Assembly (NCBI GenBank): GCA_052389315.1
Contig: JBQTIE010000295.1
Coordinates: 5,255-69,254 of the forward strand
Length of the DNA: 64,000 nucleotides
From: Acidobacteriota bacterium
GTDB lineage: Bacteria; Acidobacteriota; Vicinamibacteria; Vicinamibacterales; UBA2999
Reading direction: 5' to 3'
Of the stretch, positions 4,706-63,715 are shown piece after piece; the first letter of the stretch is position 1, and each line of letters starts with the position of its first letter. The position numbers were made by a program, and so were the translations under genes. The notes under the pieces are model-generated. The model made no database searches. It had not been told where the DNA came from and saw only the letters and a program-made list of their open reading frames with translations.

Positions 4706-5970
4706 GCGAGTGATCCCTTCTGACGCCCTGTCCGGGGCTCGTCGCCCGCCGAGAGACGCGGAAGCTGTTGATGGGCCCGCTCCCGGCGCGCGACGTCGAG
4801 GATCGCATCCGCCGCTCTTCCGCTCGCACCTGGTCCGCCGAGCCGCTCACGAACGATCTGGAGCTGCGTCTTCATCTCGGCGACCCGCCGGGCGTTGGTC
4901 AACAAGTCCACGGCCTCTCGGGCCACGGCGTCTGGCGTGCAGTGATCTTGAATCAACTCTGTCACGACGCGATCGCCCGCCACGAGATTCACCATGCTGA
5001 ACATCGAGACGCGCACGAGCCGCCGGCCGAGCTGGTAGGTCACTGGCGACAGGCGATAGACCACCGCCATGGGTTTGCCATGCAGGGCCGTCTGAATCGT
5101 CGCGGTTCCGGAGGCGGTCACCACGACGTCGCTGGCCGCCAGCACGTCGTCGGTCTGGCCTTCGACCACGCGAACCTGGGCGCCCACGCCCTGGAATGGC
5201 AGGAAGAACGAATCGGGCAGCTGTGGGGCACGCGCCACCAGGAACTGCGTCCCGTTGACCTCCGACGCGATGCGCGGCATCGCCGCGGCAAGCACCGGCA
5301 CGAGGCGGTGCACCTCATTGGGCCGGCTGCCGGGCAGGAGCGCAACCACCGGCCTCGACGTGTCGAAACCCAGGCGCTCGATGAGGGACTCTCTCGATTC
5401 GCGCACGACCGCAAGATCGACCAGGGGATGGCCGACAAACTCCACGTCGAGGCCCTCGTCGCGGTAGAGCGACTCCTCGAAGGGAAAGATCGGCAGCACG
5501 CGGTCCACGACGGCCTTCATCGTCCGGATGCGACCGGGCCGCCAGGCCCAGAGCTGCGGGCTGACGTAGTACACGACGGGCACGCCGAGCCGGTGGACGG
5601 CGGTCATCAGCCGAAAATTGAAATCCGGGTAATCGACGAGCACGAGCGCGTGCGGACGCTCGGCGCGGGCAGCCCGCACCAGGCGCCGGAGCATCGCATA
5701 GGAGTCCGGCAGCACGCGCAGGGCTTCGACCAGGCCGGTGACCGCCAGCCCGCGACAGTCGCCGACCAGACGGCCGCCGGCGGCCGAGAACCGCTCGCCA
5801 CCCAGGCCAAACACCTCGACGGTCGGCTCTCGTGTGCGGAGCGCCTGCACGAGGGCACCGGCATACAGGTCGCCGGAAGCCTCACCGCACGAGAGCATCA
5901 CTCGCACGGGCGTCGTCGAGGATGGCCCTCGGGGCGCCTCGCGACGCGCGGTGCTCGCCACCCCATTCAC
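4702..5970 (-). CDS. lpxB: lipid-A-disaccharide synthase
   Basis: Typical LpxB sequence (SCGEASGDLYAGALVQAL, DYPDFNFRL, VYYVSPQLWAWRPGRI, PFEESLY). The N-terminal roughly 20 codons may be upstream of the true start. Confidence 0.85.
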   Translation of the reverse strand: MNGVASTARREAPRGPSSTTPVRVMLSCGEASGDLYAGALVQALRTREPTVEVFGLGGERFSAAGGRLVGDCRGLAVTGLVEALRVLPDSYAMLRRLVRAARAERPHALVLVDYPDFNFRLMTAVHRLGVPVVYYVSPQLWAWRPGRIRTMKAVVDRVLPIFPFEESLYRDEGLDVEFVGHPLVDLAVVRESRESLIERLGFDTSRPVVALLPGSRPNEVHRLVPVLAAAMPRIASEVNGTQFLVARAPQLPDSFFLPFQGVGAQVRVVEGQTDDVLAASDVVVTASGTATIQTALHGKPMAVVYRLSPVTYQLGRRLVRVSMFSMVNLVAGDRVVTELIQDHCTPDAVAREAVDLLTNARRVAEMKTQLQIVRERLGGPGASGRAADAILDVARRERAHQQLPRLSAGDEPRTGRQKGSLA

Positions 5971-8307: not shown

Positions 8308-9665
8308 CGGGCGCCTCCCTTCGGCATGACATGGAGCACGACGCGCCGCGCGGGCGTGAAGTACGTCTGCGCGACCCGTTGCACATCGGCGAGGGAGATG
8401 TTCTGAAAGATGTCGAACTCGCCGTCGGCCGTCTTGATGTCGGAATGAATGACTTCGGCGTGCGCCAGATGGGTGGCCTTGTCCTGGAGCGAATCACGGC
8501 CGAGGATGTAGTCGCGTGCAAACTGGTTCTTGGCCCGCTGCAGCTCACGATCCGAGATCCCGTCCTTCTTGAGCCGATCCAGCTCCCCGATCAATGCCTT
8601 CTCGACCTCCGCCGGCGATCGGCCCGGATTGACGATCGCGACGGCGAAGAACAGGTTGGGGTGCTCGATGATGTTGCCGCTGCCGAATGCGGTGAGCGCG
8701 AGGCCCGTGTCATAGACCAGGCGCCGATAGATGCGCGAACTCTGCCCGTCCGACAACACCTTGGAGACGATGTGCAGCGGATACGAGTCGGGATGGCCGT
8801 CGTAGGTGATGTGATGCGCGACGACGACCGCCGGCAGCGGCCAGGGCTCCTCCACCGTCGTCCGGCGCTCCTTTTTCGACTCTGGCTCTCGAGGAATGTC
8901 GCGCGGCACCGCCTTGGCGGCGGGCGGAACGCGAGCCAGATAGCGCTGCACGAGCTCGGTCGCCTGATCGACGTCGAAGTCGCCGGCGATGACGATGGTG
9001 CAGTTCGCCGGCACATAGTAGGTCTGGTAGAACTCCCGGACGTCGTCGACCGTCGCGGCCTCGAGGTCCTTCATGCTGCCAATCACCGGATGCTTGTAGG
9101 GATGCACGGTGAACGCCGACTCGAAGAGGATCTCGTTGAGGCGGCCGTACGGCTGGTTCTCGATGCGCATGCGACGCTCTTCCTTGACGACGTCGCGCTC
9201 GTTGCGGAACGTCCGATCGTCGATGCGCAGCGTGGCCATCCGGTCGGCCTCCATCCACAGCACGAGCGGCAGGTACTGGGCCGGCACCGTCTGCCAGTAC
9301 ACCGTGGCGTCTTCGGTGGTAAACGCGTTGGCGCGGCCGCCCACCGACGAGACAATCGACGTGTGCTGTTCCGGCTCGACGTTCTTCGAGCCCTTGAACA
9401 TCAGGTGTTCGAACAGATGCGCAAATCCGGTTCGCCCGCTCCGCTCGTCCTTCGAGCCCACGTGATACCAGAGCTGGACGTGCACGATGGGCGTGGACCG
9501 GTCCTGGTGCAGCAGGACCGTCAGGTCGTTGGGCAGGGTGAGGCGCTGGTAGTCGAGCTTGGGCGGCCTGACGGCCGCATCGACGTCCACCCGCCAGGGC
9601 CACACGGCCACGGCGGCCGCCAGCCACACGAGCAGCCACGAAACACGAAATGCAGGATTCGTCAT
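8304..9665 (-). CDS. M16-family zinc peptidase (catalytic subunit type)
   Basis: Inverted zinc motif HLFEH within GFAHLFEHLMFKGSK. Signal/TM segment MTNPAFRVSWLLVWLAAAVAVW. Start moved to ATG 9665 inside ORF 8304..9872. The stop overlaps the next M16 gene. Confidence 0.85.
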   Translation of the reverse strand: MTNPAFRVSWLLVWLAAAVAVWPWRVDVDAAVRPPKLDYQRLTLPNDLTVLLHQDRSTPIVHVQLWYHVGSKDERSGRTGFAHLFEHLMFKGSKNVEPEQHTSIVSSVGGRANAFTTEDATVYWQTVPAQYLPLVLWMEADRMATLRIDDRTFRNERDVVKEERRMRIENQPYGRLNEILFESAFTVHPYKHPVIGSMKDLEAATVDDVREFYQTYYVPANCTIVIAGDFDVDQATELVQRYLARVPPAAKAVPRDIPREPESKKERRTTVEEPWPLPAVVVAHHITYDGHPDSYPLHIVSKVLSDGQSSRIYRRLVYDTGLALTAFGSGNIIEHPNLFFAVAIVNPGRSPAEVEKALIGELDRLKKDGISDRELQRAKNQFARDYILGRDSLQDKATHLAHAEVIHSDIKTADGEFDIFQNISLADVQRVAQTYFTPARRVVLHVMPKGGAR

Positions 9666-9711
9666 GGATCTGACCTGATTATGGCACCGAACCGGACGAG
9701 CCGACGAAGTC

Positions 9712-10731
9712 TCAGGCCTTTTCGAGTCTGGCGAGTCGGCCTTCGAGGTCCTTGAGCTGGCGACGCAGCTCGGGCAGTCGCCGCACGATGGCAAACGCCT
9801 TCCGCCACTCGAGGTTCTCCATGTGCGGATACCCTGTGATGAAGGTGTCTGGCGGGACGTTCCCGGTGACACCTGTCTTCGCCGACGCTTTCACCCGATC
9901 GCCCACCGTGACGTGGCCCGTCACACCCACCTGTCCCCCCAACATCACATCGTCGCCCAGGATGGTGCTTCCGGCGATTCCGACCTGGGCGGCGAGCATG
10001 CTGTTGCGCCCCACGACAACGCCATGCGCCAGGTGGACGAGGTTGTCGAGTTTGGTGCCGGATCGCACGCGGGTTTCGCCCACCGCCGGGCGGTCGATCG
10101 TCGAGTTGGCGCCGATCTCGACATCGTCTTCGATGACGACCGTGGCCACCTGGGGAATCCGCTCGTGGGTGCCGTCGTCGCGCACCGCGAAGCCGAAGCC
10201 GTCGCTCCCCACCACGGCGCCGTCCTGGAACACGCAACGCGCACCGACGACCACCCGCTCCCTGATGGAGACGCGGGTGTGCACGACACAGTCGGGCCCC
10301 AGCGTCGCGCCCGCTCCGATGACGGCATGGGCGTGGATGATCGATCGAGCGCCGACGCGGGCGCCGGCTTCGATGACGGCGAACGGGCCGACCGACACCT
10401 CGTCTCCCAGGTGAGCCTCGGTCGATACGACGGCGAGCGCATGAATGCCCGGCACACGACGCGGCTCCGGGTGAAGCACGCGTGCGGCGCGGGCGAAGGC
10501 GAGATAGGGATTGTCCGTTCGCAGAATGGCGCATGGCGCGTCAGCGAGCGTCGGCGACGCGATGATGGCCGACGCCTGGCAACGACCTACGAGGCCGGTG
10601 TATTTGGAATTGGCGAGAAACGTGAGGTCGCCGGGACCCGCGCCCTCGAGAGAGTTGATGCGCGTGATCTCGATCTCGCCGTCGCCTTCGAGCAGGCACC
10701 CGAGGTGCGCGGCCAACTCGACGAGCTTCAC
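9712..10731 (-). CDS. lpxD: UDP-3-O-acylglucosamine N-acyltransferase
   Basis: LpxD N-terminal domain (KLVELAAHLGCLLEGDGEIEITRINSLEGAGPGDLTFLANSKY) followed by hexapeptide repeats. A likely GTG start at 10731 gives 339 aa and a 13-nt gap to the upstream gene. The ORF itself extends to 10824. Confidence 0.85.
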   Translation of the reverse strand: MKLVELAAHLGCLLEGDGEIEITRINSLEGAGPGDLTFLANSKYTGLVGRCQASAIIASPTLADAPCAILRTDNPYLAFARAARVLHPEPRRVPGIHALAVVSTEAHLGDEVSVGPFAVIEAGARVGARSIIHAHAVIGAGATLGPDCVVHTRVSIRERVVVGARCVFQDGAVVGSDGFGFAVRDDGTHERIPQVATVVIEDDVEIGANSTIDRPAVGETRVRSGTKLDNLVHLAHGVVVGRNSMLAAQVGIAGSTILGDDVMLGGQVGVTGHVTVGDRVKASAKTGVTGNVPPDTFITGYPHMENLEWRKAFAIVRRLPELRRQLKDLEGRLARLEKA

Positions 10732-10744
10732 GATTCCGAGAATA

Positions 10745-11431
10745 TCATGTGCTCGTCGCGCGGACCGTCTCGCAGAAGGTGGCCAGGTGTTCCAGCTGAA
10801 GGCGCCTGGCGAGCTCGCGTACACGCTCCTTCCGCGCCGCGGGTTCGAGCATCATGGCCGCGCGAAGCTCGGCGAGGTCCGCGCTCGCGTCATAGTGCCA
10901 CGTGACGCCCGACAACCCCTTCTTGGCGCCGCGCATCGACAGCAGGTGCCCGACCACCTGAAAGGTGAAGTACAGGCCAATCACGTTCGGCCCGGGGACG
11001 ATGGTGAGCAGGGTGGCCGGGGCCAGCAGCGCGAGGTCGATGAACATCCATTTCAGATGGTGATCCGCGTCGGCCTTCAGTTGCTGGCGCACGATGCGGT
11101 CGGCGTCGGCCGGCATCAGGTCCGCCGGCATCCGCGCGCGGACCTCGGTCGCCTTGCGCAAGTGCCAGAGCAGCCGCTGCTCGGCGATACGTTCGACCAC
11201 AAACCCCATGATGCGGCGCCGGAGGCGGCCGACCAGGCCTGGCGGCTCCGAACGTTGCTCCTGCCGCCGGTGTCGCCACTCCTCGGCTTCGTGAAGCATC
11301 GCGTCGAACTTGCGCGTCATCCGGCGAAAGAGGCCTGGACTCTCCGGCCCACTGTCGATCGCCTTGCCGGGCGGCTCGAAGTACAGCTCGTAGCGCCCTG
11401 CCTTCGCGGTGGGGATCAGGAACACGTCCAT
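10745..11431 (-). CDS. hypothetical membrane protein
   Basis: ORF 10745..11542 trimmed to ATG 11431 (MDVFLIPTAKAGRYELYFEPP). It has a charged central region and one clear hydrophobic pair of helices (WMFIDLALLAPATLLTIVPGPNVIGLYFTFQVVGHLL). No family recognised. Confidence 0.5.
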   Translation of the reverse strand: MDVFLIPTAKAGRYELYFEPPGKAIDSGPESPGLFRRMTRKFDAMLHEAEEWRHRRQEQRSEPPGLVGRLRRRIMGFVVERIAEQRLLWHLRKATEVRARMPADLMPADADRIVRQQLKADADHHLKWMFIDLALLAPATLLTIVPGPNVIGLYFTFQVVGHLLSMRGAKKGLSGVTWHYDASADLAELRAAMMLEPAARKERVRELARRLQLEHLATFCETVRATST

Positions 11432-13371: not shown

Positions 13372-15081
13372 TCAGCCACGGTGCGCGGCGACGGCCACCT
13401 CACGCAGATCTTTGCGCAGGATCTTGCCGACGTTCGACTTGGGCACCTGGTCTCGAAACACGACGGTCCTCGGGATCTTGTAGCTGGTGAGCGACTGGCG
13501 CGCGTGCTCGCGCACGGCGTCGGCGGTCAGCGTACGGTCGCGGGGCACGATGACCGCCACGACGGCCTCGCCGCACAGCGGGTCGGGCACACCGAGGACG
13601 CACACTTCAGCCACTCCAGGGTGAGTCGCCAGCACCGCCTCGATCTCGGACGGATACACGTTGAAGCCGCTCACGAGAATCATGTCCTTCTTGCGATCCA
13701 CGATGTAGAAGTACCCGGCTTCGTCCATCGTGGCGACGTCGCCGGTGGCCAGCCAGCCGTCGCGCAACACGCGCGCCGTTTCGTCAGGGCGCTGCCAATA
13801 CTCCTGCATGACCTGCGGTCCCCGCACGAGGAGTTCCCCAGGCTGTCCGGGCTCCACGTCCCGGCCCTCGTCGTCGGCCAGCCGAATGTCGGTTCCCGGC
13901 ACGGGCACGCCGATCGACGCCATCTTCGCCCGGTGAAACGGGTTCAACGTGACGACGGGCGATGTCTCGGTGAGACCGTACCCTTGGTAGATCGGCGTGC
14001 CAGTCATCTGCTCCCACCGCTCGCCCACGGCGGGCGCCAGCGCCATGCCGCCGGCGACGGTCCCCCTGAGCTTCCAGTCCTTCTTCGCCTGGAACCACGG
14101 TTCGTTCATCAATGCGATGAACAGCGTGTTGACCCCGGTGAACCAGGTCACCGGCTCTTCCTCCATCACGCGGCGAAGGTTGGTGAACGGACGAGGAGAA
14201 GGGATCAGGAAGTTGCGGCCGCCTACCGCAAAGAACACCATCAGGTTCGCCGTAAACGCAAAGATGTGGTACAGCGGCAACGCCGTCAGCATCACCTCCT
14301 CGCCCCGCCGGAGCCGCGGCTTCCACACCTCGAGGCTCGCGAGGATGTTGGCCAGCAGGTTGCCGTGCGTCAGCACCGCGCCCTTGGAGACTCCCGTGGT
14401 GCCGCCGGTGTATTGGAGCGCCGCGATGCTGTCGCCGGTGAGAGCGTCCGCGTAGCTCTCGGGCCGGGCACCCGCCGCGCGCTGCCGGGCGCCGGCGGCC
14501 AGCGCGTCGGGGAACGTCGTATGGGGGAACGACACGGGTGGAAGCATCTTCTTCACGTGCTTCTGCACGGCGCGCACGACGAAGCGCTTCAGCGTGGGAA
14601 GCAGATCCGCCACGCTCACGAGCACAACGGTCTTGATGGCCGTCTTCGGCAATACCTCGGCGACTTTGTCGGCGAACACGTCGAGGACCACGAGGCCCGT
14701 GGCGCCGCTGTCGGTGAACTGATGCCTCATCTCCGCCGGCGTGTAGAGGGGATTGGTGTTCACCATCACGAGGCCGGCTTTCAAGCACCCGAACACGGCG
14801 ATGGGATAGGCCAGGCAGTTGGGCATCTGCAACGCCACGCGGTCGCCCGGGTTGAACCGCGCCACCTCGCGAAGGTACACGGCAAACTCGTCGGAGAGCC
14901 GCTCAACCTCGCGGTACGTCAGGGTGCCCTGCGTGCCGTTCGGCAGGTACAAGCTGAAGGCCGGAGACTCCGCAAAGTTCGAGGCGGCCTCCCGCACCAA
15001 GGCCGGCAGATGCGGCCACGCGATGGCGGGAAGCTCCCTGCTCGTCTGCTCGTGGTATTGGGCGAACCATGGACGCGTCAT
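13372..15081 (-). CDS. long-chain fatty acid--CoA ligase (AMP-binding enzyme)
   Basis: AMP-binding motif LQYTGGTTGVSKGAVLTHGNL, then GYGLTETSP, WLATGDVATMDEAGYFYIVDRKKDMI and a C-terminal KILRKDLR. Confidence 0.9.
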   Translation of the reverse strand: MTRPWFAQYHEQTSRELPAIAWPHLPALVREAASNFAESPAFSLYLPNGTQGTLTYREVERLSDEFAVYLREVARFNPGDRVALQMPNCLAYPIAVFGCLKAGLVMVNTNPLYTPAEMRHQFTDSGATGLVVLDVFADKVAEVLPKTAIKTVVLVSVADLLPTLKRFVVRAVQKHVKKMLPPVSFPHTTFPDALAAGARQRAAGARPESYADALTGDSIAALQYTGGTTGVSKGAVLTHGNLLANILASLEVWKPRLRRGEEVMLTALPLYHIFAFTANLMVFFAVGGRNFLIPSPRPFTNLRRVMEEEPVTWFTGVNTLFIALMNEPWFQAKKDWKLRGTVAGGMALAPAVGERWEQMTGTPIYQGYGLTETSPVVTLNPFHRAKMASIGVPVPGTDIRLADDEGRDVEPGQPGELLVRGPQVMQEYWQRPDETARVLRDGWLATGDVATMDEAGYFYIVDRKKDMILVSGFNVYPSEIEAVLATHPGVAEVCVLGVPDPLCGEAVVAVIVPRDRTLTADAVREHARQSLTSYKIPRTVVFRDQVPKSNVGKILRKDLREVAVAAHRG

Positions 15082-15788
15082 GAGCAGATCGTCCCGAACT
15101 GAAAGCCCTTTCGACGGAGTTCAGGAATCAGCGCGCGGGTCACATCGACGGCATACTGTCGATCGGCGCGCGGATTCACATGGTGCCCGTCGTGAATGAC
15201 GATGATGTCCCCGGGCGACGCCCGGCGCACCAGCCGAGGGACGATGGCCACCGAGCGAGGTCGGAAGAATTCGTAGTCCCAGAGCATGAAGCCCCAGCCG
15301 ATCATCTGATAGTCGATGCGGCGCAGTCCCTCGAGCATCTGGCTGCCACGGAAGCCAGCGTGCGGCCGGAAGGCACGGCACGCCGCCCGGCCCGTCAGCG
15401 ACTCCAGGCGCGCGGAGAAGGCCGTGAGCGTGCGCCCCAAGGCCTCGGGTTCCAGGAACAGGTAGCTTCGCGTGTGCGAGTGCAGGGCGACCGAGTGGCC
15501 TTCCTCGGCGATCCGGCGCACGAGCGGCGCCGTGTCCTCGGTGACGTGCCGCTCGATGAGGAAAAACGTGGCCTTCACGCCCTCGGCAGCCAACACGTCG
15601 AGCAACGCCGGCGTCGCCGTCGGATTCGGACCATCGTCATAGGTGAGATAGACGGTGGGGGTGGTCTGCTGGCGGGGCATCCGCCAGATGACCCGGTCCG
15701 CATGCAGGGCATCGAGCAAGAACGGAAACGGCGCCGTATGCGCCAGAGCGACGACCGCGGCGGCCACGCCGAGGAAGAGCAGCAGCAT
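15078..15788 (-). CDS. polysaccharide deacetylase (NodB homology domain) with an N-terminal TM/signal segment
   Basis: TVYLTYDDGPNP..ATFFLI..HSVALHSHTR motifs. ORF 15078..15848 begins at a TTG, but ATG 15788 (MLLLFLGVAAAVVALA) is the more plausible start. The stop overlaps the acyl-CoA ligase start (ATGA). Confidence 0.8.
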   Translation of the reverse strand: MLLLFLGVAAAVVALAHTAPFPFLLDALHADRVIWRMPRQQTTPTVYLTYDDGPNPTATPALLDVLAAEGVKATFFLIERHVTEDTAPLVRRIAEEGHSVALHSHTRSYLFLEPEALGRTLTAFSARLESLTGRAACRAFRPHAGFRGSQMLEGLRRIDYQMIGWGFMLWDYEFFRPRSVAIVPRLVRRASPGDIIVIHDGHHVNPRADRQYAVDVTRALIPELRRKGFQFGTICS

Positions 15789-15987
15789 GCCTGTTCCAGG
15801 AGTCTGCCACAATACAAGAATGTCTAACGAGGCCCTGCCTGAGACCAAACTGTGGCATCTGTGCCGCGTTTGGTCCCCGTGGGGTCGTCGCTGGCGACGG
15901 TGGAGGCTTCAGACCGCCAAGCCTGTGACGTAAGCAGGGCCTCGATAGCCATGATGTTGTCTTGCCCCGCCTCCGGCGGGGCAGTCG

Positions 15988-26744: not shown

Positions 26745-28636
<1,892 letters not shown>

Positions 28637-34167: not shown

Positions 34168-35106
34168 ATGCCCCTGCACGAGCTGCTGACAGCGCTCCGA
34201 AGTGAGATCGAGTCGGCGCTGGCCGGCTATGCGCTGAAACCACCCGCAACCCCCGGCATCGTCGGCGAAGCCATGCAGTACAGCCTCACGGCCGGGGGCA
34301 AGAGACTTCGCCCGCTGCTGACCTTGTGCGCGGCCGACGCCGTGGCCGCGCGCGGCGGTCTCGCTCCGGATCTCGTCAGGCGTCTGGCCATGCCCTCGGC
34401 GTGCGCCATCGAGATGATTCATACCTACTCGTTGATCCACGACGATCTCCCCGCCATGGACGATGACACGCTTCGGCGTGGCCGCCCGACGCTGCACGTG
34501 GTGGCCGGCGACGGGATGGCCATCCTGGCGGGCGACGGCCTCCAAGCCGACGCGTTTCGCCTCCTCGCACGGGAGCCCTCATCCAACGACCCGGCGATCG
34601 TCAGCCGAAAACTGCGCGTCATCGCCACGATCGCGGAGGCGGCTGGCTCGTCCGGCATGGTCGGGGGCCAGGCGCTCGACCTCGCGGCCATCCGACCCGC
34701 TCCAGGTCGTCCGCCGGCGATCCTGGACGCCGCCGGGCTCGAAGCCATGCACGGGCGCAAGACCGGCGCGCTGATCCGCGCGGCCACGGTCGCCGGTGCC
34801 ATCATGGCCGGCGCAGACGAAGAGGCCGTCGCCGCGCTCGATCGTTTTGGGGTCGAGATCGGACTCGCGTTTCAAATCGTCGACGATCTGCTCGACGTGG
34901 AACAGCGGTCCGAAACCCTGGGAAAGACAGCCGGCAAGGATGCGCAGGCGGGCAAGCCCACCTATCCGTCGCTGTTCGGCCTGGAACGATCGCGACAGCT
35001 CGCCGCCGACCGCATCGCCAGTGCCGCCTCGGCGTTGACCGGCGCCGGCCTCGACGACTCGGCCCTCATGGGCATTGCCCGCTGGGTCCTCGATCGGCAG
35101 TCGTGA
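34168..35106 (+). CDS. polyprenyl diphosphate synthase (farnesyl/geranylgeranyl diphosphate synthase)
   Basis: First Asp-rich motif LIHDDLPAMDDDTLRRGRPT and second motif FQIVDDLLD. The position after xseB is typical of ispA. Confidence 0.85.
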   Translation: MPLHELLTALRSEIESALAGYALKPPATPGIVGEAMQYSLTAGGKRLRPLLTLCAADAVAARGGLAPDLVRRLAMPSACAIEMIHTYSLIHDDLPAMDDDTLRRGRPTLHVVAGDGMAILAGDGLQADAFRLLAREPSSNDPAIVSRKLRVIATIAEAAGSSGMVGGQALDLAAIRPAPGRPPAILDAAGLEAMHGRKTGALIRAATVAGAIMAGADEEAVAALDRFGVEIGLAFQIVDDLLDVEQRSETLGKTAGKDAQAGKPTYPSLFGLERSRQLAADRIASAASALTGAGLDDSALMGIARWVLDRQS

Positions 35107-56191: not shown

Positions 56192-57022
56192 ATGATACGG
56201 ATGTTCGAATGCGGTCGTGTCGCCCGGGCGGCGGCCATTGGAGTCTTGGTCCTCGGTTGGCCGTGCACGGCGGCGGCTCAGTTTCGCCCCGCGCCGAACC
56301 CGGCCATCGGCGAGCGCTACCACATCGAAGGGGCGATGACGCTGTGGAACGCCGACCCGACGCTGATCGTCTCGAGCGAGGCCCTCGGCATTCCCGGAGA
56401 CAACGTTGACCTCGTGACCGACCTGGGAATCGAGCAAGAGCGCCTGCGGGAGTTCCGGCTGGTCCTCCGGCCCGCGACCAAGCACAAATTCCGGGTGCAC
56501 TACCTGCCCATCAGCTACGAGGCCCAGGCCGTCGTGCAACGCTCGTTCGTCTTCAATGGCCAGCGCTACCGCATCGGACTCCCCGTCAACACCACCGCGA
56601 ATCTCAAGACCTACCGGTTCGGGTACGAATACGACTTCTTCTACAGGGATCGCGGGTACGTTGGTGTGCTGCTCGACCTCAAGTACACGGACGTGCAGGT
56701 CAACCTGGATAGTCCGATCGGCGCGGAATTCACGAGCGCCGTCGCGCCGATTCCCACCTTCGGGTTCGTCGGGCGCGGCTACGTGACCAGCAACGTGTCG
56801 ATCACCGGTGAGTTCACCTTCTTCAAGGTACCCGAAAACCTGGGTGGCGAAGATTACGGCGGTCGCTACATCGATTACGACTTTTACGGCACCATCAACT
56901 TCACCAACAACGTCGGCGCGCAGTTCGGTGTGCGGTCGATCGATGTCGAGTACTTCAAAGAGCTCGACACCGGTAACTTGCAGTTCAAGGGATTGTATTT
57001 CGGGGGCGTGCTGCGCTACTGA
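56192..57022 (+). CDS. outer membrane beta-barrel protein (hypothetical)
   Basis: Signal peptide ..VLVLGWPCTAAAQ, aromatic-rich alternating strands (YRFGYEYDFFY, GVLLDLKYTDVQV, YIDYDFYGTINF) and a C-terminal ..GLYFGGVLRY. Start is ATG 56192 within ORF 56090..57022. Confidence 0.6.
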   Translation: MIRMFECGRVARAAAIGVLVLGWPCTAAAQFRPAPNPAIGERYHIEGAMTLWNADPTLIVSSEALGIPGDNVDLVTDLGIEQERLREFRLVLRPATKHKFRVHYLPISYEAQAVVQRSFVFNGQRYRIGLPVNTTANLKTYRFGYEYDFFYRDRGYVGVLLDLKYTDVQVNLDSPIGAEFTSAVAPIPTFGFVGRGYVTSNVSITGEFTFFKVPENLGGEDYGGRYIDYDFYGTINFTNNVGAQFGVRSIDVEYFKELDTGNLQFKGLYFGGVLRY

Positions 57023-59673
57023 GACGGCTCGGGGAACTCGAGCCGCACACCGAGGCGCCGTGGGTCGCGCGACTCGGGATCCTGATCGACCGGCCGGAAC
57101 CATGCCCCCGTGTGGATCGCGAGCAGTTGGTTGGCCGGCACGCTCAGGCGCGACTGTTCGCCGGGGGCGAGCGCCGCGGTCGCCCTCCACGACCCGGCTT
57201 CCAGTTCCACCTGCGTCGGCACCGGGCCTGCCTGGAGGATCACCTCGACGCCGGGCTCCGCGCTGGTGAGGGCCACTCGCGCGGTGGCATTGCCTCGCGT
57301 CCAGAGCCCTCCGGGTTCCAGATACACTTCGTCGTCCAGGAGGAATACTCGTGCGGCGCCGAATCGCGACGCGCGAATCACGTAGCGATCGGCCGCAATC
57401 GGCCTGCGGTCGACGACGAGCGGCCGAAGGCCCACCCGCGTGAGGCTCGCTCTCGCCGCAGTATCGCCTCGAACGACCACGGAGTGTGCGCGCGCGGGCA
57501 AGCGCATCCGGAAGGTGGTGACGCCTGGTGCCACGCCGTCGAGCGCCCACGTCTCAATCGCCTGCGACGTCAACCCGACAGCTACGGCGAGCGTCCCCGA
57601 CAGCCGGCTCGGCCCCTCGAGCAACACCGCATATTCGCCCGCCGGCAGCCACGCCGCGGCGAACAGTACGTCAGGACCCTTGACGTCGCGGGTGCGTCCT
57701 GACATATGGAGCGAGAGGCTTGCCAACGCCTGCCCGTGCCGCACTCGATGTCGCTCGGGCAGGCGGAGCATGACGGGGCGCCACGAAGGGTCCCAACGGC
57801 GGACGAACTCTGCTTCAGACGACTCAGGGGTGACGGCCTGCAGCCCCTGTTGCCACCAGACCGCGGTCATACCCAACATGGTGACGACGAGCACCCACAG
57901 CCCGGTCAGGGCCCATGACGCCCCGAAGGACCTCACCCGCGTTCGCAGAGAGCCCGCCAACCCGGCGCACGCGGCCACGGTCATGGACGCCCAAATAGCC
58001 GCCGCCGTGAGCGCGACGGCTCCGCCAGTGCGGTGCACGCTGGGAACGGCGAGGGAGATGTCGATCGATCGCGCCAGCCAATCCAGCAGAAGATCCGACC
58101 CGTCTCGCGTGTTGTACATGAGCAGACCGTCAAGGAGGACCACTCGCGCCACCAGGTTGGCGAAGCCGATCAGCACCAGCGCACCGAACGTCCATCGCCA
58201 CGCTCGCCCACCGGTCAGCCATCCGTGCGCCAGGATGGGCACCGCCAATGGCAGGACGGGAACCAGGAATCTGGCGGGAGCGCTCCAGCCGCCCCACCAC
58301 ATGCCGAACGACGCAACGAGCGCCACGTACGGCACGGCCGTCAGCAGGAGTTCGCCGGCCAGGCGGGGCCGAGCCTGGACGAAACGCCAGAGCGATGGTA
58401 CCAAGTACAGGATCGCAGGAGCGCTGGCGAGCAAGCCAAACTGCTGATCAACGGCCAGACCGGTGAAGCCTCGGCCGATCCACATCCAGGCATTCTGCTG
58501 GCTGCCCCCATAGGGCACCGCCGGATTGACCGTGCCGTAGATGCGCTCGAAGTACGAGAACCAGGCCAGGGCCAGCAGCGCGGGGCCAGCCCCGAAGGCG
58601 ATGAGCGCGCGCCACCGGTCCGGTCGGCCCAGGAGCCGAGCGCCCAGCACCAGCCCCAACGCCGCCGACAGGATGGCGAAGCGGGTGTGCAACCACGGCA
58701 GCACTCCGAGGAGCAGTCCCGCTGCCATGAGCAGTCCCGGACGGGCTTCGAGAGAACGAGACACGCCCAGGCGAATCAACAGTGCGGCGCTGGCGGCGAC
58801 GATCGCCCCACCCACGGCGTCGGGAAAGATCGAGACGCTGTGAACAACCCACGGTGCGCTGGCCGCCACCGCCAGCGTGCCCGCCCACGCCGCGGCGGCA
58901 TCGGAGGTCATCAGGTACGCCGCCCGCCACATCGCCGCGACGCCGAGCGCGCAGATCAAAGCCAGCGTCATCACGGCACCGGCGTAACCGGCGAGCCAGA
59001 AGGCTGGCAGAACCAGCACCGACACGCCCGGTGCGTGAATGGAGTAGATCTCACCGTCGCCGCCCCTCTTCAGGAAGTCCGGGAACAGCGGGTTGGCGGA
59101 GTACGCGAAGTAGTCACCCCTGTCGTGATTGTTCTGGATCCGAAGGTCCCCGTCCGACAGCAGGCTCTGCGTGATGACGAGGTAGTGAGGTTCATCACCA
59201 GCGGGAAGTTGCTGCTGGAGGCCCCAGGCGCAGGCCAACGAGACCACGAGCGCCAGCGCACTGGCCGTCCAGGGCGCGCGTTTCGGATCGCCGATGAGCG
59301 CCAGGCCGCGGACGAAGCGCTCCAGGCGAGCGCGAGCAATGCGGGCGCAGAGCACGCCGCCGAGGGCGGCTGTCCAGACCAGCGCCTCGAGCGGGCCTTC
59401 CCAGACAAGCGCGGCATGCGGGACGGGCGCCGGCAGCCACGGCCACCACAAGACGGCGGTCAGGGCCAGGGGCCAGGCCTCCGCCGTTCTGAGGCGCCCA
59501 AGCCACGCCAGCAGGACTGGCGCGGCGATCAGCGGGGCCAGGGCCCAGAGACTCGGCAGGGCGCCGATGCTCGCGCCGCTGTCGTGGATGACCGCGAGCG
59601 ATCCCAGCGACAGCCAGGCTGACGCTCCCGCGGCGAGGGCCAGCCCGAGCGCGCCGGGGTCGGTTCGGCGCAT
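57016..59673 (-). CDS. large polytopic membrane protein, GT-C-fold glycosyltransferase-like, with a C-terminal extracytoplasmic beta-rich domain of roughly 300 aa
   Basis: About 15 hydrophobic helices. There is an acidic loop motif, LPAGDEPHYLVITQSLLSDGDL, after the early TM helices, as in ArnT/PMT-type enzymes. ATG 59673 sits 1 nt after the methyltransferase stop. The ORF extends to 59757. Confidence 0.55.
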   Translation of the reverse strand: MRRTDPGALGLALAAGASAWLSLGSLAVIHDSGASIGALPSLWALAPLIAAPVLLAWLGRLRTAEAWPLALTAVLWWPWLPAPVPHAALVWEGPLEALVWTAALGGVLCARIARARLERFVRGLALIGDPKRAPWTASALALVVSLACAWGLQQQLPAGDEPHYLVITQSLLSDGDLRIQNNHDRGDYFAYSANPLFPDFLKRGGDGEIYSIHAPGVSVLVLPAFWLAGYAGAVMTLALICALGVAAMWRAAYLMTSDAAAAWAGTLAVAASAPWVVHSVSIFPDAVGGAIVAASAALLIRLGVSRSLEARPGLLMAAGLLLGVLPWLHTRFAILSAALGLVLGARLLGRPDRWRALIAFGAGPALLALAWFSYFERIYGTVNPAVPYGGSQQNAWMWIGRGFTGLAVDQQFGLLASAPAILYLVPSLWRFVQARPRLAGELLLTAVPYVALVASFGMWWGGWSAPARFLVPVLPLAVPILAHGWLTGGRAWRWTFGALVLIGFANLVARVVLLDGLLMYNTRDGSDLLLDWLARSIDISLAVPSVHRTGGAVALTAAAIWASMTVAACAGLAGSLRTRVRSFGASWALTGLWVLVVTMLGMTAVWWQQGLQAVTPESSEAEFVRRWDPSWRPVMLRLPERHRVRHGQALASLSLHMSGRTRDVKGPDVLFAAAWLPAGEYAVLLEGPSRLSGTLAVAVGLTSQAIETWALDGVAPGVTTFRMRLPARAHSVVVRGDTAARASLTRVGLRPLVVDRRPIAADRYVIRASRFGAARVFLLDDEVYLEPGGLWTRGNATARVALTSAEPGVEVILQAGPVPTQVELEAGSWRATAALAPGEQSRLSVPANQLLAIHTGAWFRPVDQDPESRDPRRLGVRLEFPEPSQ

Positions 59674-59674
59674 G

Positions 59675-60421
59675 TCAGGAAGGTTTGCGAGCGTGGCAGA
59701 GCAGCGAACTGCCGACGGGGAGGTCCACGACACGCAGCGCGGCAGCTTCGAGACCAACCAACCCCGTCAGCATCATGTTGATCGGCCACGGGGGGACGGT
59801 GATGTCGAACTCACCGGCCGGGATGGACGGTCCTTTGCGCCACCGCTGCACGGTGCGCACGAGCAGCATGAGGGGAAACAGGCTCGCGTACACGAAGGTC
59901 AGCCGGTCGATGGTAAAGCCTGCCCGCTCGACAACGAGTCGCAGCCGGGCCGGGGTGTAGCGACGCACCTCCTCGGAGAGCGTGCTGTGCGGTCCCCGGA
60001 GCGCGTCGAGGGCCGCGACGTTGAGAATCAGGCGGCCACCTGGCTTGAGCACTCGCCACAGTTCGGCGAGGGCCGCCTCCTCGACCGGATCGGGCAGGCA
60101 TTGGAACACGTCGAACGACGTCGCCACGTCGATGGTGGCGTCCCGCACCGGAACCGCCGCGAGGCTGGCCCGAGCCAACCCTTGCCGTCCCAGCTGACGG
60201 CCGAGCACCAGCCCGTTCCAGGTGAGATCGAATCCGTGGGTGACCCCGAACTGGCGGAGCCACGCCACGTTGGCGCCCGTGCCGCATCCGCAGTCGAGAA
60301 GCGTCGGGGCGTCGAGGCCGCGCACGGCTCGCGCGACCTCGGGCTGTACAAACCAGCGAAACCCGCGAAACCAGAAGTGCGACTGCTCCGCGCGACAGGT
60401 CAGTTCCAGCAGGCGATCCAT
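59675..60421 (-). CDS. class I SAM-dependent methyltransferase
   Basis: Motif I LLDCGCGTGANVAWL. Post-I and motif II-like segments (GFDLT, DVATSFDVFQCLPD) and LKPGGRLILNV. Confidence 0.8.
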   Translation of the reverse strand: MDRLLELTCRAEQSHFWFRGFRWFVQPEVARAVRGLDAPTLLDCGCGTGANVAWLRQFGVTHGFDLTWNGLVLGRQLGRQGLARASLAAVPVRDATIDVATSFDVFQCLPDPVEEAALAELWRVLKPGGRLILNVAALDALRGPHSTLSEEVRRYTPARLRLVVERAGFTIDRLTFVYASLFPLMLLVRTVQRWRKGPSIPAGEFDITVPPWPINMMLTGLVGLEAAALRVVDLPVGSSLLCHARKPS

Positions 60422-60458
60422 CGAGGCGGCGAACGCGTCATGCTACCATACGCCCCGC

Positions 60459-62123
60459 ATGCGCTCGCGCGGACTGATCGAGGCCACGCTCGTCTGCCTC
60501 ATCGCGACCGCGCTCACGGCTGCTGCCACTTATCCGGTGGCGGTCCGCTATGACCAGGTGGGACGCGTCAACACGGACGACGGCCGCTGGAGCATCTGGG
60601 TGGTGGCGTGGGTCGCGCATAAGCTGACGAGCGATCCCCTCGAAGTCTTCAACGCCAATATCTTCCATCCGCACCGGTACGCCCTGGCGTTCTCGGAGGC
60701 CAACCTCGGTGCGGGCTTCCTCGGTGCCCCCGTCTGGTTCTTGACCGAGAATCCGTATGCCACCCACAACATCGCGTTCCTGTTGTCGTTCGTCATCGCG
60801 TTCGCGGGCGCGTACTACCTCGTCCGCCACCTGACCGCCAGCCGCCACGCCGCGATTGTCAGCGCCGTCCTGTACGCGTTCTGTCCGTTCGTGTTCGCTC
60901 GAACCGCCCACATCCAGCTGATGTTCACGGGCGGACTCCCATGGTCGATGCTGGCGTTCCATCGTCTCGTCGATGCGCCGTCGGTCACGCGATCGGTCGT
61001 CCTCGGCGTCACGTTGTGGGCAACGGCCCTGTCCTGTGCGTACTACGGCATCTTCGCCGGGCTGATGGTCGGCTTGGGCACGGCGGTGTTCGCCGCGGCC
61101 CATGGACGGTGGCGATCGTCCGACTACTGGGTCGCGATTGGCCTGGCCGCGTTCGTGAGCGTGGGTCTGACCATCCCCTTCTTCCTGCCGTACCTGGAGA
61201 TTCAGACCGAGATGGGCTTTGCGCGCACGCTGGACGACGCTCGGATGTACTCGGCCGATGGCGGTGCGTGGCTCGCATCGGCGGCCTGGGCCCATCGCTG
61301 GTGGCTGCCGCACCTCGATCGGTTCAACGAGGTGCTGTTCCCCGGCGTGACCACCCTGGTCCTGGCCGTCGTTGGCATCGCACGCGGTGTCGGCCGCAAG
61401 CCGCCGGTGGGGGCCGCTCATCGCCCTGGCTTGAGCCTGGAGGCAGGTCTCCTATACGTGCTCATCGCGGTGTTCGCGTGTTGGGCGTCGTTCGGGCCCG
61501 ATGGCGGACTCTATCGCCTCTTCTACGACTATCTGCCGATCTTCACGTTCCTCCGCGCACCCGGTCGAATGGGCATCATGGTCACGCTGGCGCTGACCGT
61601 CCTGGCCGGATCCGCCGTGGCGTACTGGTCGAGTCGGCTGGCGCGCGCCACAGCACTCACGGCTGCCCTCGCGGCTGGTGCCTTCGCCGAGCTGGCGACC
61701 ATGCCGCTCGATCAGTTCAGGCAAGCCGACCAGGTCTCGTCTGCACATCGCCTCCTCAAGACTTTACCCAGGGGCGTGGTCGCCGAGTTCCCCTATTGGT
61801 ACGAGCGCATGGACTTCCCGCGTCATGCCTTCTACATGCTGCTCTCGACCGCGCACTGGCAACCACTGGTCAATGGCTACAGCGATCACATCCCCAGGGA
61901 CTTTCGAGAGAGCGTGCGATCGCTGTCGTCGTTCCCCTCGCGCGAATCGTTCGGGATCCTCGCCAGGCGTGAGACGCGCTACGTGCTGCTTCACCTGAAC
62001 ATGTACAACATCAGGCTCCGGGAGCGGTTGTTCGAACGACTCGAGGCCTATCAGGACTACTTGCGTCCCATCGTGCGGGAAGGCGACGTGTGGCTCTTCG
62101 AAATCGTTGGGTGGCCGAACTAG
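60459..62123 (+). CDS. polytopic membrane protein, GT-C-like candidate (paralog 1)
   Basis: TM1 is followed by the loop VGRVNTDDGRWSIWVVAWVAHKL, then about 11 further helices and a C-terminal soluble domain of roughly 120 aa (HWQPLVNGYSDHIP...). It is clearly paralogous to the next gene. Start is ATG 60459 within ORF 60222..62123. Confidence 0.6.
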   Translation: MRSRGLIEATLVCLIATALTAAATYPVAVRYDQVGRVNTDDGRWSIWVVAWVAHKLTSDPLEVFNANIFHPHRYALAFSEANLGAGFLGAPVWFLTENPYATHNIAFLLSFVIAFAGAYYLVRHLTASRHAAIVSAVLYAFCPFVFARTAHIQLMFTGGLPWSMLAFHRLVDAPSVTRSVVLGVTLWATALSCAYYGIFAGLMVGLGTAVFAAAHGRWRSSDYWVAIGLAAFVSVGLTIPFFLPYLEIQTEMGFARTLDDARMYSADGGAWLASAAWAHRWWLPHLDRFNEVLFPGVTTLVLAVVGIARGVGRKPPVGAAHRPGLSLEAGLLYVLIAVFACWASFGPDGGLYRLFYDYLPIFTFLRAPGRMGIMVTLALTVLAGSAVAYWSSRLARATALTAALAAGAFAELATMPLDQFRQADQVSSAHRLLKTLPRGVVAEFPYWYERMDFPRHAFYMLLSTAHWQPLVNGYSDHIPRDFRESVRSLSSFPSRESFGILARRETRYVLLHLNMYNIRLRERLFERLEAYQDYLRPIVREGDVWLFEIVGWPN

Positions 62124-63715
62124 CGCTCTTCGCCCTGCTGGCGACGCTTCACACCTGGCCGCTCGCCACCGATCCGGCGCACCTCACCCGCCTCGACAAT
62201 GACGATGCCGCCTTCAATACGTGGGTGATCGCGTGGGTGGCCCATCAGCTTCCCAGGGATCCGCAGCGCCTCTTCGAGGCTCCCATCTTTCATCCAGCCC
62301 ACGAGGCCCTGGCGTTCTCGGAGCACATGCTGGTGCCGGCCCTGCTCGGCGCGCCGCTGCAATGGGCGGGCGTTTCGCCGGTACTCGTCTACAACATCCT
62401 GGTATGGGCCGGGCTCACGCTGTCCGGCTTCTCCTTGTGCGTCGTCATGCGCCGCTGGACAGGCAGTGGCATCGCCGGGGTGGTCGCCGGGAGCGCGTAC
62501 GCGTTCAACGCCCACCTCTTGACCCGCTTTTCCCACTTGCAAGCGCTGCACGTCGAGTTTTTGCCCGTCGTGCTGTTCGCCTTCGACCGGCTCCTCTCCA
62601 CCAAGCGGACCCGGTGGGCTGCCCTGCTGGCCGTCGCCTTCCTGCTGCAGGCGCTCTGCTCGAATTACACGATGGTGTTCCTGGCCACGGCGCTCGGCAC
62701 GGCGCTGCTGGTCCGACCAGAACCCTGGACGCGCGGATCTCTCCGCCTGTGGCTCGCGCTGGCCGGCGCGGCCCTCGTGGCCGGCGGAGCGCTGGTTCCG
62801 TTCCTCCTGCCGTACTACCGTGTCAGGCTCGATCAGGGATTGGTGCGCACGATCGATGATGTGCGGCTGTACTCAGCGGGTTGGCTGGACTACCTCGTGA
62901 CCGCAGGACGAATCCATTTCTCGGCATGGAGCCACTACGTTTTTGAGCATCGGACGGCCCTGTTCCCGGGCCTGACGGCCAGTGCCCTCGCGGCCATGAC
63001 GGTGATCAGCGGCGTAGCACTCCGTGATCGACGTGCCCGGATGGCACTGGCGTTCAGCGTCGTCGGCTTTGCGCTGTCGTTTGGCGCGAACCTGCCGGGC
63101 TATGCGTGGCTGCACGAGCACGTCCCGCTCCTCCAGGGCATTCGCGCGGCTGCCCGCTGGGGGTTCCTCGCCCTGACGGGTATCGGCATCCTGGCGGGTT
63201 TCGGCGTCAGCTGGCTGCAGAACCGGGTCGGCCGGACGTCCGTCTGGCCGGCTATCGCCATCGGCCTGGTCGGCCTGGTCACCCTAGAGGCGCTGCGCGC
63301 GCCACTTTCGCTCCGTCGTTTCGACGGTCTGGCCTCCGTGCATCGGCGTCTCGCGCGCGCCGAAGTGCACGCCATCGTCGTCTTTCCACTCTACGGCGGC
63401 GACCGATTCAATCGAAACGCCATGTACCTGCTCGATCAGACGGCGCACTGGAAACCCATGATCAACGGGTACAGCAGCTTTGCCCCGAGCAGTTTCTTCG
63501 AGCGCGCCGCGCGTCTGCAGTCGTTTCCAGACGCCGCCTCCATTGCTGAACTCCGTTCGGTGGGGGTCAGCCATATCGTCTTGCATCGTGCCCCGCTCGA
63601 GGAGACCTTCGGGGCCGCGGCTCTTGCCTCGCTTCGCGCTCACCCGGACCTCGAGTTCGTCGTCGAACAAACGGGTGTGATCGTCTATCGGCTTCGACCC
63701 GAGGGACCCGGTTGA
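62090..63715 (+). CDS. polytopic membrane protein, GT-C-like candidate (paralog 2)
   Basis: Same architecture as paralog 1: LTRLDNDDAAFNTWVIAWVAHQL, IFHPAHEALAFSEHMLVPALLGAP (versus IFHPHRYALAFSEANLGAGFLGAP) and HWKPMINGYSSFAP. GTG 62090 or GTG 62111 overlaps the end of paralog 1. Confidence 0.6.
   Translation: MALRNRWVAELALFALLATLHTWPLATDPAHLTRLDNDDAAFNTWVIAWVAHQLPRDPQRLFEAPIFHPAHEALAFSEHMLVPALLGAPLQWAGVSPVLVYNILVWAGLTLSGFSLCVVMRRWTGSGIAGVVAGSAYAFNAHLLTRFSHLQALHVEFLPVVLFAFDRLLSTKRTRWAALLAVAFLLQALCSNYTMVFLATALGTALLVRPEPWTRGSLRLWLALAGAALVAGGALVPFLLPYYRVRLDQGLVRTIDDVRLYSAGWLDYLVTAGRIHFSAWSHYVFEHRTALFPGLTASALAAMTVISGVALRDRRARMALAFSVVGFALSFGANLPGYAWLHEHVPLLQGIRAAARWGFLALTGIGILAGFGVSWLQNRVGRTSVWPAIAIGLVGLVTLEALRAPLSLRRFDGLASVHRRLARAEVHAIVVFPLYGGDRFNRNAMYLLDQTAHWKPMINGYSSFAPSSFFERAARLQSFPDAASIAELRSVGVSHIVLHRAPLEETFGAAALASLRAHPDLEFVVEQTGVIVYRLRPEGPG

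Follow-up and report, generated by a model that had tools for sequence, protein, structure and literature searches.

Three predicted GT-C-fold membrane proteins and a methyltransferase encoded in a probable envelope glycosylation cluster of a Vicinamibacterales bacterium

Results

We analyzed a stretch of 64,000 nucleotides (the window) from an Acidobacteriota bacterium of the order Vicinamibacterales (GenBank assembly GCA_052389315.1, contig JBQTIE010000295.1, positions 5,255 to 69,254 of the forward strand), in which a block at 57016..63715 encodes three polytopic membrane proteins (A, C, and D) and a methyltransferase (B) dependent on S-adenosylmethionine (SAM). The reading that we favor, with a probability of roughly 0.65, is that A, C, and D are GT-C-fold membrane glycosyltransferases of two unrelated, uncharacterized families (A in one, C and D in the other), together with a cytoplasmic methyltransferase and with an outer-membrane protein (OMP)-like gene alongside. 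In all likelihood, the locus is a cell-envelope glycosylation cluster of a conventional kind, though not yet studied. A preliminary description, made from the letters of the window without database searches, had recognized three GT-C-like polytopic proteins and a class I SAM methyltransferase, which was upheld by fold prediction and Foldseek. Its further proposal of an undescribed system stood in that the proteins are uncharacterized, but the kind of system is already known.

Predicted folds of proteins A, C, and D

AlphaFold2 models were built from multiple sequence alignments of 50-54 sequences, the family of A comprising 50 members and the alignment of C and D comprising 54 sequences with both subfamilies included. 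Protein A (57016..59673, minus strand) has 885 aa from an ATG, the longest open reading frame (ORF) beginning at TTG 59757. Its model had a pLDDT of 92.7 and a pTM of 0.90, and all eight Foldseek matches in the PDB with E<=1e-3 were GT-C enzymes, with ArnT (5ezm; E=1.7e-6, 19% identity) at the top, followed by AftB (9dlh), EmbA (7bvc)/EmbB, AglB, and ALG12. Protein C (60459..62123, plus strand; 554 aa) gave a model with a pLDDT of 90.4 and a pTM of 0.91, for which every one of the 24 PDB matches with E<=1e-3 was likewise a GT-C glycosyltransferase. These included yeast/human STT3 (8age, E=1.6e-7, template-modelling (TM) score 0.52), Caenorhabditis elegans DPY19, AglB, AftA, ArnT, PglB, and Pmt4. 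Protein D (62090..63715, plus strand; 541 aa) is a paralog of C, as had been described, with 31% identity over 494 residues (BLASTP, E=3e-58); it keeps every residue that is invariant in the combined alignment and, by its homology to C at this level of identity, is assigned the same predicted fold. Transporters had been put forward as a possible outcome of a structural search. A Foldseek probability of about 1.0 was reached only by GT-C structures, both with C and with the membrane portion of A as the query, whereas transporters reached 0.06-0.23, and the transporter reading was rejected on these probabilities.

Model secondary structure and hydropathy divide A into about four N-terminal helices, a GT-C core starting with helix 133-151, and a C-terminal beta-rich region (residues ~634-885; 57016..57774, minus strand). 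The presence of this last region had been noted correctly, but its size of about 300 aa was an overestimate, since the model gives about 250 aa, with approximately 20 strands between residues 634 and 879. Foldseek returned weak matches of the region to bicupin/jelly-roll proteins and to Vip3 C-terminal domains. In the model, the layout of A is that of Emb, AftD, and GT136 enzymes, a GT-C core followed by a C-terminal beta-sandwich, and by analogy with these enzymes the region is a putative pair of carbohydrate-binding modules (CBMs) (PMC11127046). C has a smaller C-terminal periplasmic domain of alpha/beta type, about 140 aa in length.

Conserved residues of the first periplasmic loop

The fold-level features of GT-C enzymes were found in the block: a polytopic core resembling solved GT-Cs and a conserved acidic residue in the first extracytoplasmic loop. 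The motifs given in the preliminary description (GDEPHY...SDGDL in A, NTDDGRWSIWVVAWVAHKL and DNDDAAFNTWVIAWVAHQL in the two paralogs, IFHP..ALAFSE, and HW(Q/K)P(L/M)(V/I)NGYS) were all located in the translations and fall on invariant columns of the 50-54-member family alignments. The acidic first-loop motifs, on which the GT-C proposal had been based, proved to be invariant in each family, and the loop itself is enriched in invariant columns. In A, the first periplasmic loop of the GT-C core (residues 153-215; 59029..59217, minus strand) accounts for 17 of the 63 invariant columns (p=3e-7), including G159-D160-E161-P162, Y164, D174, and D176 in the 50-sequence alignment. The corresponding loop of C (residues 24-82; 60528..60704, plus strand) holds 15 of 42 (p=5e-6), and the residues invariant across C and D are, in C numbering, R36, D41, W47, W51, H54, F69, P71, S79, and E80. 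At the start of the C-terminal periplasmic domain of both paralogs lies HWxPxxNGYS, in which P469, N472, Y474, and S475 are invariant.

The side of the membrane on which these loops lie was assigned from hydropathy and charge bias. Six K/R residues occur in loop 114-133 of A before helix 134-152 and nine D/E residues in the loop after it, so that the acidic loop lies outside by the positive-inside rule; in C, two K/R residues precede the first transmembrane helix, which likewise places the first loop outside. The proposed catalytic Asp of solved GT-Cs and of GT136 ORF12 closely follows a transmembrane helix, where the first periplasmic domain begins (PMC11127046). The acidic residues of C and A sit at this position.

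Family membership

The statement that none of the three proteins belongs to a nameable family was borne out, as none of them reaches a curated Pfam or NCBIfam threshold. Against Pfam at E<=0.01, A and its 50 relatives gave no match except one spurious DUF4131 match, and neither A nor any of these relatives reached the gathering thresholds of PMT_2/PMT; the likeness of A to ArnT is therefore structural only. The NCBIfam model NF047440 (LA_3751/LA_3752 putative glycosyltransferase) scored A at 22.4 bits against a cutoff of 200, which does not make A a member. The same model was matched weakly, and always below the cutoff, by 44 of the 50 family members, the best relative having E=6.7e-16.

For C, the nearest Pfam match was DUF6044 (PF19510), below threshold at 16.6 bits against a cutoff of 27, and the Pfam scan of D gave no match. 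Both stayed below the gathering thresholds of YfhO (PF09586), DUF6044, DUF6311 (PF19830), and PTPS_related (PF10131). Weak matches at E<=0.01 were seen among the 54 members to DUF6044 (8), PTPS_related (3), YfhO (2), and PMT_2 (2), some homologs carry precomputed DUF6311 or PTPS_related matches, and one more distant relative is named "glycosyltransferase family protein" or YfhO by its sources (YfhO by UniRef). Judging from these sequence matches, C and D are peripheral relatives of the YfhO/DUF6044/DUF6311/PTPS_related families and are not called members. The GT-C clan of Pfam, CL0111, includes PTPS_related and PMT_2 (PMC7801869), and YfhO proteins have been described as GT-C-type enzymes (PMC8035078). 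No literature was found on DUF6311, DUF6044, PF19830, PF19510, or LA_3751/LA_3752, and nothing relevant on Vicinamibacter together with glycosyltransferase.

Profile hidden Markov models of the A family and of the C/D family returned nothing meaningful against PDB sequences. That A, C, and D might be three paralogs was ruled out by an hhalign probability of 0.2 between A and C/D. At the 50% identity level, public data contain 31,414 clusters that match the C/D profile at E<=1e-3; at E<=1e-30, the number is 5,629. Nine relatives of D with 722-782 aa (P0364, P0366, P0368, P0374, P0387, P0390, P0400, P0404, and P0409) carry a carbohydrate-binding PA14 domain near the N-terminus, flanked by two extra transmembrane helices, the N-terminal anchor and one more. 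With such an arrangement, PA14 and the motif loop would face the same side of the membrane, and the fusion ties the C/D family to glycan recognition. We had considered the relatives of about 750-780 aa as fusions of a methyltransferase with a GT-C; this was ruled out, the N-terminal domain being PA14.

Methyltransferase B

The product of the gene at 59675..60421 (minus strand; 248 aa) matched Methyltransf_11 (58.1 bits, cutoff 21.2; E=1.5e-15) and Methyltransf_25 (48.1 bits, cutoff 27) in Pfam and contains the motif I-like LLDCGCGTG, and it is a class I SAM-dependent methyltransferase with the Rossmann-type domain. Its best NCBIfam match, the DVU_1556 family methyltransferase, reached 49.6 bits and falls short of the cutoff of 155. 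B has neither a signal peptide nor an N-terminal hydrophobic segment, only one weakly hydrophobic stretch at 214-232. Since SAM is also cytoplasmic, B would have to act in the cytoplasm, before export, and methylation could not take place at the periplasmic face.

Gene layout

Coordinates were taken from a six-frame ORF list, in which the four ORFs were found with the positions and spacing previously described. A single nucleotide separates the stop TGA of the methyltransferase gene from the start ATG of A, and C and D overlap by 34 nt if D has 541 aa. In the NCBI call, D has 534 aa, which would put its start seven codons downstream (62111) and reduce the overlap to 13 nt, leaving the start of D ambiguous. 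The operon structure is indicated by this 1-nt junction and by the C/D overlap: B and A are translationally coupled, and so are C and D. The two divergent transcription units are separated by a spacer of 37 nt (60422..60458), which is too small for two separate promoters, so that the promoters would have to reach into coding regions. The promoters and any regulator site would have to overlap one another or the coding regions.

The OMP-like gene (plus strand) converges on A, and its end (57022) overlaps that of A by 7 nt. Its start is most likely ATG 56192 (56192..57022; 276 aa) rather than GTG 56090 of the mechanical 310-aa ORF, because homologs align only from about residue 35 of the longer ORF. 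The encoded orphan secreted protein has a signal-peptide-like N-terminus (...AAIGVLVLGWPCTAAAQ) and ends in ...GGVLRY; this N-terminus and the C-terminal aromatic residue suggest an outer-membrane beta-barrel. Its family alignment (A3) comprises 18 members with 55% mean column identity, and neither the protein nor the family gave a Pfam match or a PDB sequence match. BLASTP showed no similarity to the OMP_b-brl-like protein of one related locus (L085, described below).

NCBI holds identical proteins from an Acidobacteriota metagenome-assembled genome (MAG), all annotated "hypothetical" (ACT4QD_20945, ACT4QD_20955, and ACT4QD_20960), and the nearest relatives carry the Vicinamibacterales label. 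The GC content is even across the window (64-70%), and this uniformity gives no mark of the block being foreign.

Gene association in relatives

One genome per species was scanned, which yielded 573 relatives of C, and the analysis covers the best 80 loci, nearly all of them from Acidobacteriota/Vicinamibacterales MAGs. Loci were mapped by tblastn with ORF clustering, the genes being called by a simple GC3-filtered ORF finder; upstream counts refer to the 61 loci in which C is preceded by at least 4.5 kb of sequence. The order of the window type (Type I) can be written as [ABC exporter pair]-[CstA]-OMP-A(-)-[B(-)]-C(+)-[D(+), sometimes a third paralog]-[aminotransferase]-SLT/TPR-GAF. This layout was confirmed in three relatives with precomputed Pfam annotation, one of which (L001) is entirely without A. 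An OMP homolog lies upstream of C in 48 of the 61 loci and is the most constant neighbor of the cluster. A was adjacent in 35/61 loci and the methyltransferase in 25/61; 13 loci had both next to C, and 14 had neither. A D-like gene followed C in 32 of 67 loci, in zero to three copies. The methyltransferase and D are concentrated in the clade nearest the window.

Many relatives encode, immediately upstream of CstA or the OMP, a pair of ~592-aa proteins whose N-terminus resembles that of an ABC exporter (L004, L005, L013, L017, L033, L039, L041, L043, L048, L050, L054, L056, L062, L065, and others); the pair does not occur in the window. Nine loci with Vicinamibacterales-type synteny (L006, L018, L020, L028, L032, L035, L049, L061, and L083) carry the labels Bifidobacteriaceae, Acidimicrobiia, Gemmatimonadaceae, or Cyanobacteria and likely come from mislabeled or contaminated bins. 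Homologs of A, C, or D were split into at least two tblastn segments or ORFs in L028, L030, L036, L038, L046, L062, L064, L072, and L082, which points to frameshifts, pseudogenes, or long-read assembly errors.

A second context (Type II) was found at L055, L060, L069, L071, and L076-L078 (for example, L078:213-18930), with the loci of A homologs at L083 and L085. In this context, a C ortholog (46-48% identity) directly follows a shorter polytopic protein of 630-685 aa, which has the last beta domain in common with A and, at L075, the motif region as well. A class I methyltransferase sometimes stands between the two, and an A ortholog (37% identity) is sometimes convergent to C, giving the arrangement A-short-(methyltransferase)-C-A-long. 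The neighbors include three GT4/GT1 glycosyltransferases, an NAD-dependent epimerase/dehydratase, a hexapeptide acyltransferase, LPG_synthase_TM proteins, and a GlpD-like oxidoreductase; L085 additionally encodes a PMT_2 GT-C, an MBOAT protein, a radical SAM enzyme, and the small OMP_b-brl-like protein mentioned above. No GT2 was seen in these Type II relatives, in which LPG_synthase_TM proteins and GT4s are present.

The dedicated pathway of the preliminary description needs qualification: the four genes do not form a fixed unit, but A-like, methyltransferase, and C-like genes re-associate in a second context. Their re-association in a differently flanked glycan cluster speaks for a functional link and not just for a gene order passed on by descent, and it is the best evidence that A, a methyltransferase, and C cooperate in the synthesis of an envelope glycan or glycolipid.

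Discussion

Several observations weigh against the interpretation of the block as a glycosylation cluster of three GT-C glycosyltransferases and a methyltransferase. As for the individual proteins, A, C, and D fall short of the curated thresholds of Pfam and NCBIfam, and the empty profile searches of PDB sequences mean that the fold assignment rests on predicted structures from the alignments of 50-54 sequences. Furthermore, some GT-C-fold proteins, such as PIG-U, are non-catalytic. Partner genes are also missing from the neighborhood: among the approximately 39 ORFs of the window scanned with Pfam, we found no GT2-type polyprenyl-phosphate sugar synthase, no GtrA/Wzx/MATE flippase, and no nucleotide-sugar gene. 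The synthase in particular had been suggested as something to look for in the flanks, and the sole polyprenyl-related match was a housekeeping polyprenyl synthetase (34168..35106); the donor pathway would accordingly have to be encoded elsewhere. The gene set is variable, as the 13 loci with both A and the methyltransferase next to C and the 14 with neither indicate, and the conservation of the Type I order could be largely inherited synteny, with pheST-zapAB-thiL-3D-cstA conserved alongside. Finally, over the SAM-binding core the Type II methyltransferases share only 28-34% identity with B and hence may not be its orthologs.

In one rival explanation, the GT-C assignments are right, but A, B, C, and D are independent envelope-modifying enzymes collected in a variable hotspot between conserved housekeeping flanks. 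The mosaic presence of A (35/61), of the methyltransferase (25/61), and of both or neither of them, together with the zero to three copies of D, is what such a hotspot would look like; the flanks pheST-zapAB-thiL-3D-cstA and SLT/TPR-GAF are conserved regardless, and A and C/D are unrelated families. However, A-like, methyltransferase, and C-like genes come together again, co-directional and tightly packed, between different flanks in L060, L071, L075, L076, and L078, and both gene pairs of the window are translationally coupled. We consider such a hotspot unlikely, although it is the most probable of the rival readings.

A role in the modification of lipid A or the core of lipopolysaccharide (LPS) is less probable still. 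A would then act like ArnT, adding a sugar from an undecaprenyl-phosphate donor to LPS, C and D would add further residues, and the OMP would modify LPS or be associated with it. ArnT is indeed the best structural match of A, genes for lipid A synthesis occur in the window (lpxB, 4702..5970, and lpxD, 9712..10824, both on the minus strand), and the OMP gene adjoins a pair of ABC exporters in many relatives, which are called MsbA-like on the basis of their N-terminal sequence alone. Yet A has no PMT_2/ArnT profile match, a distance of about 47 kb separates the block from the lpx genes, and the ~39 ORFs scanned in the window include no donor genes of the arnABCD type. In addition, GT-Cs that act on polymers typically have a large C-terminal beta-sandwich like that of A (PMC11127046, PMC8035078), whereas ArnT is without one.

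There is only a slight chance that C and D are protein glycosyltransferases resembling oligosaccharyltransferases, with HWxPxxNGYS in the acceptor-binding role of WWDYG and with the OMP or other envelope proteins as targets. STT3, AglB, and PglB head the structural matches of C, the residues P469, N472, Y474, and S475 are invariant just where the C-terminal periplasmic domain begins, and the OMP gene is adjacent in 48/61 loci. On the other hand, no STT3 Pfam match was obtained among the 54 C/D members and WWDYG is absent from the translations of C and D; the TM-scores of about 0.5 are similar for DPY19, AftA, and ArnT. The periplasmic domain of C, at ~140 aa, is far smaller than that of PglB, and the Type II contexts resemble the synthesis of glycans or glycolipids.

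That A, C, and D are not glycosyltransferases at all but transporters or non-catalytic GT-C-like scaffolds is very improbable: no curated family was matched and non-catalytic proteins with this fold exist, but transporter structures had Foldseek probabilities of 0.06-0.23 versus 1.00 for GT-Cs, and the invariant acidic, His, and Arg residues cluster in the very loop from which GT-C enzymes build their active site.

Proposed mechanism

If the block is a glycosylation cluster, each GT-C enzyme would work on the periplasmic side of the inner membrane, passing a sugar from a polyprenyl-phosphate-linked donor to an envelope acceptor. Catalysis would proceed through the invariant acidic residues of the first periplasmic loop, D160/E161 in A and D41 and E80 in C, with their equivalents in D. 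The C-terminal beta-sandwich of A would probably hold a polymeric glycan acceptor, as the CBMs of EmbC, AftD, and GT136 ORF12 do. The translationally coupled C and D may add different sugars or linkages, or may function as a heterodimer. The cytoplasmic methyltransferase would methylate the precursor, a lipid-linked sugar or glycan, before flipping, and the donor-making enzyme and the flippase would be encoded elsewhere in the genome. The analysis itself shows the ORFs, the paralogy of C and D, the predicted GT-C fold, the invariance of the motifs, the sidedness of the loops by charge bias, and the recurrent association of the genes. From what is established for GT-C enzymes (PMC8035078, PMC11127046), we infer the catalytic activity, the lipid-linked donor, the type of acceptor, the role of the CBMs, the C/D heterodimer, and the stage at which methylation occurs. 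Precedents are the multi-component transmembrane glycosylation systems (PMC8035078) and the three-component systems of GT136, in which a GT-C is combined with a CBM (PMC11127046).

A more ambitious version, in which A, C/D(/D'), the methyltransferase, and the OMP together form an undescribed trans-envelope machine that assembles or decorates a methylated surface glycan or glycolipid, widespread in Vicinamibacterales, with C and D as a heteromeric pair and A as a polymer-modifying enzyme guided by its CBM, is conceivable but rather unlikely. If activity were demonstrated, at least two new GT-C families would be added to CAZy.

Significance

Vicinamibacterales correspond to subdivision 6 of the Acidobacteriota and are abundant in soil, and to our knowledge their envelope glycans are uncharacterized. 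The cluster offers predicted catalytic residues, a putative CBM, and an operon-partner methyltransferase. None of the relatives seen is characterized, and the identification of the donor and acceptor for one member of C/D would help to annotate a very large family. The finding extends the well-known paradigm of periplasmic GT-C glycosylation and does not reveal a new kind of system.

Other features of the window

lpxB and lpxD flank two M16 peptidase genes (5977..9872, minus strand), and a polysaccharide deacetylase gene lies nearby (15078..15848, minus strand). The presence of both lpx genes indicates that the organism makes lipid A. A frameshift divides dnaK (26745..28636, minus strand): the ORF for its N-terminal part (27218..28636; 473 aa) leaves the frame after "...DNRSLG", and the canonical continuation is found in another frame, leading into a 159-aa ORF (26745..27221). 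The split probably reflects a 1-nt error in the MAG assembly, not a true pseudogene.

Comparison with known systems

Among characterized enzymes, ArnT (GT83, undecaprenyl-phosphate-Ara4N:lipid A transferase; PDB 5ezm/5f15) aligns with A over about 500 columns at 19% identity, and in each of the two an acidic motif follows a transmembrane helix where the first periplasmic loop begins. Unlike ArnT, A has four extra N-terminal helices and the beta-sandwich region of ~250 aa, lacks a PMT_2 match, and has no arn donor pathway nearby. The architecture of A, a GT-C core followed by a periplasmic beta-rich domain, is the same as that of EmbA/B/C, AftD, and GT136 ORF12, and EmbA (7bvc_A) aligns with A over 927 columns. 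The beta-rich domain of ORF12 is a CBM, to which the acceptor glycan binds (PMC11127046). However, no sequence relationship to Emb or AftD was detected for A, whose beta domains gave weak jelly-roll/cupin-like matches. The likeness to GT136 is by domain architecture alone (PMC11127046), and the pentofuranose donor pathway of GT136 (PPPRS and a MATE flippase) is not in the window. The only named sequence family that A detectably resembles is LA_3751/LA_3752 of Leptospira, itself a "putative" one.

For C, the top structural matches are STT3/PglB/AglB (GT66) and DPY19 (E~1e-7, TM-score ~0.5), with which it shares many helices and a C-terminal periplasmic domain starting with a conserved aromatic motif. 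However, C and D have no STT3 match or WWDYG, and C is only 9-14% identical to these structures and has a much smaller periplasmic domain. The closest sequence families of C and D are the YfhO/GtlB-type GT-Cs together with DUF6311, DUF6044, and PTPS_related. In the YfhO/GtlB paradigm, a GT-A makes a C55-P-sugar, a flippase carries it across, and a GT-C transfers the sugar outside the cell (PMC8035078). Unlike those systems, the block has no adjacent GT-A or GtrA gene, and its host is a diderm acidobacterium rather than a teichoic-acid-containing Firmicute. The adjacency of a synthase and a flippase that marks three- or multi-component transmembrane glycosylation systems is likewise not seen here, and the partners may be encoded elsewhere in the genome. 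Taken together, these comparisons place A, C, and D in no curated family tested, but in function they would be like known GT-Cs.

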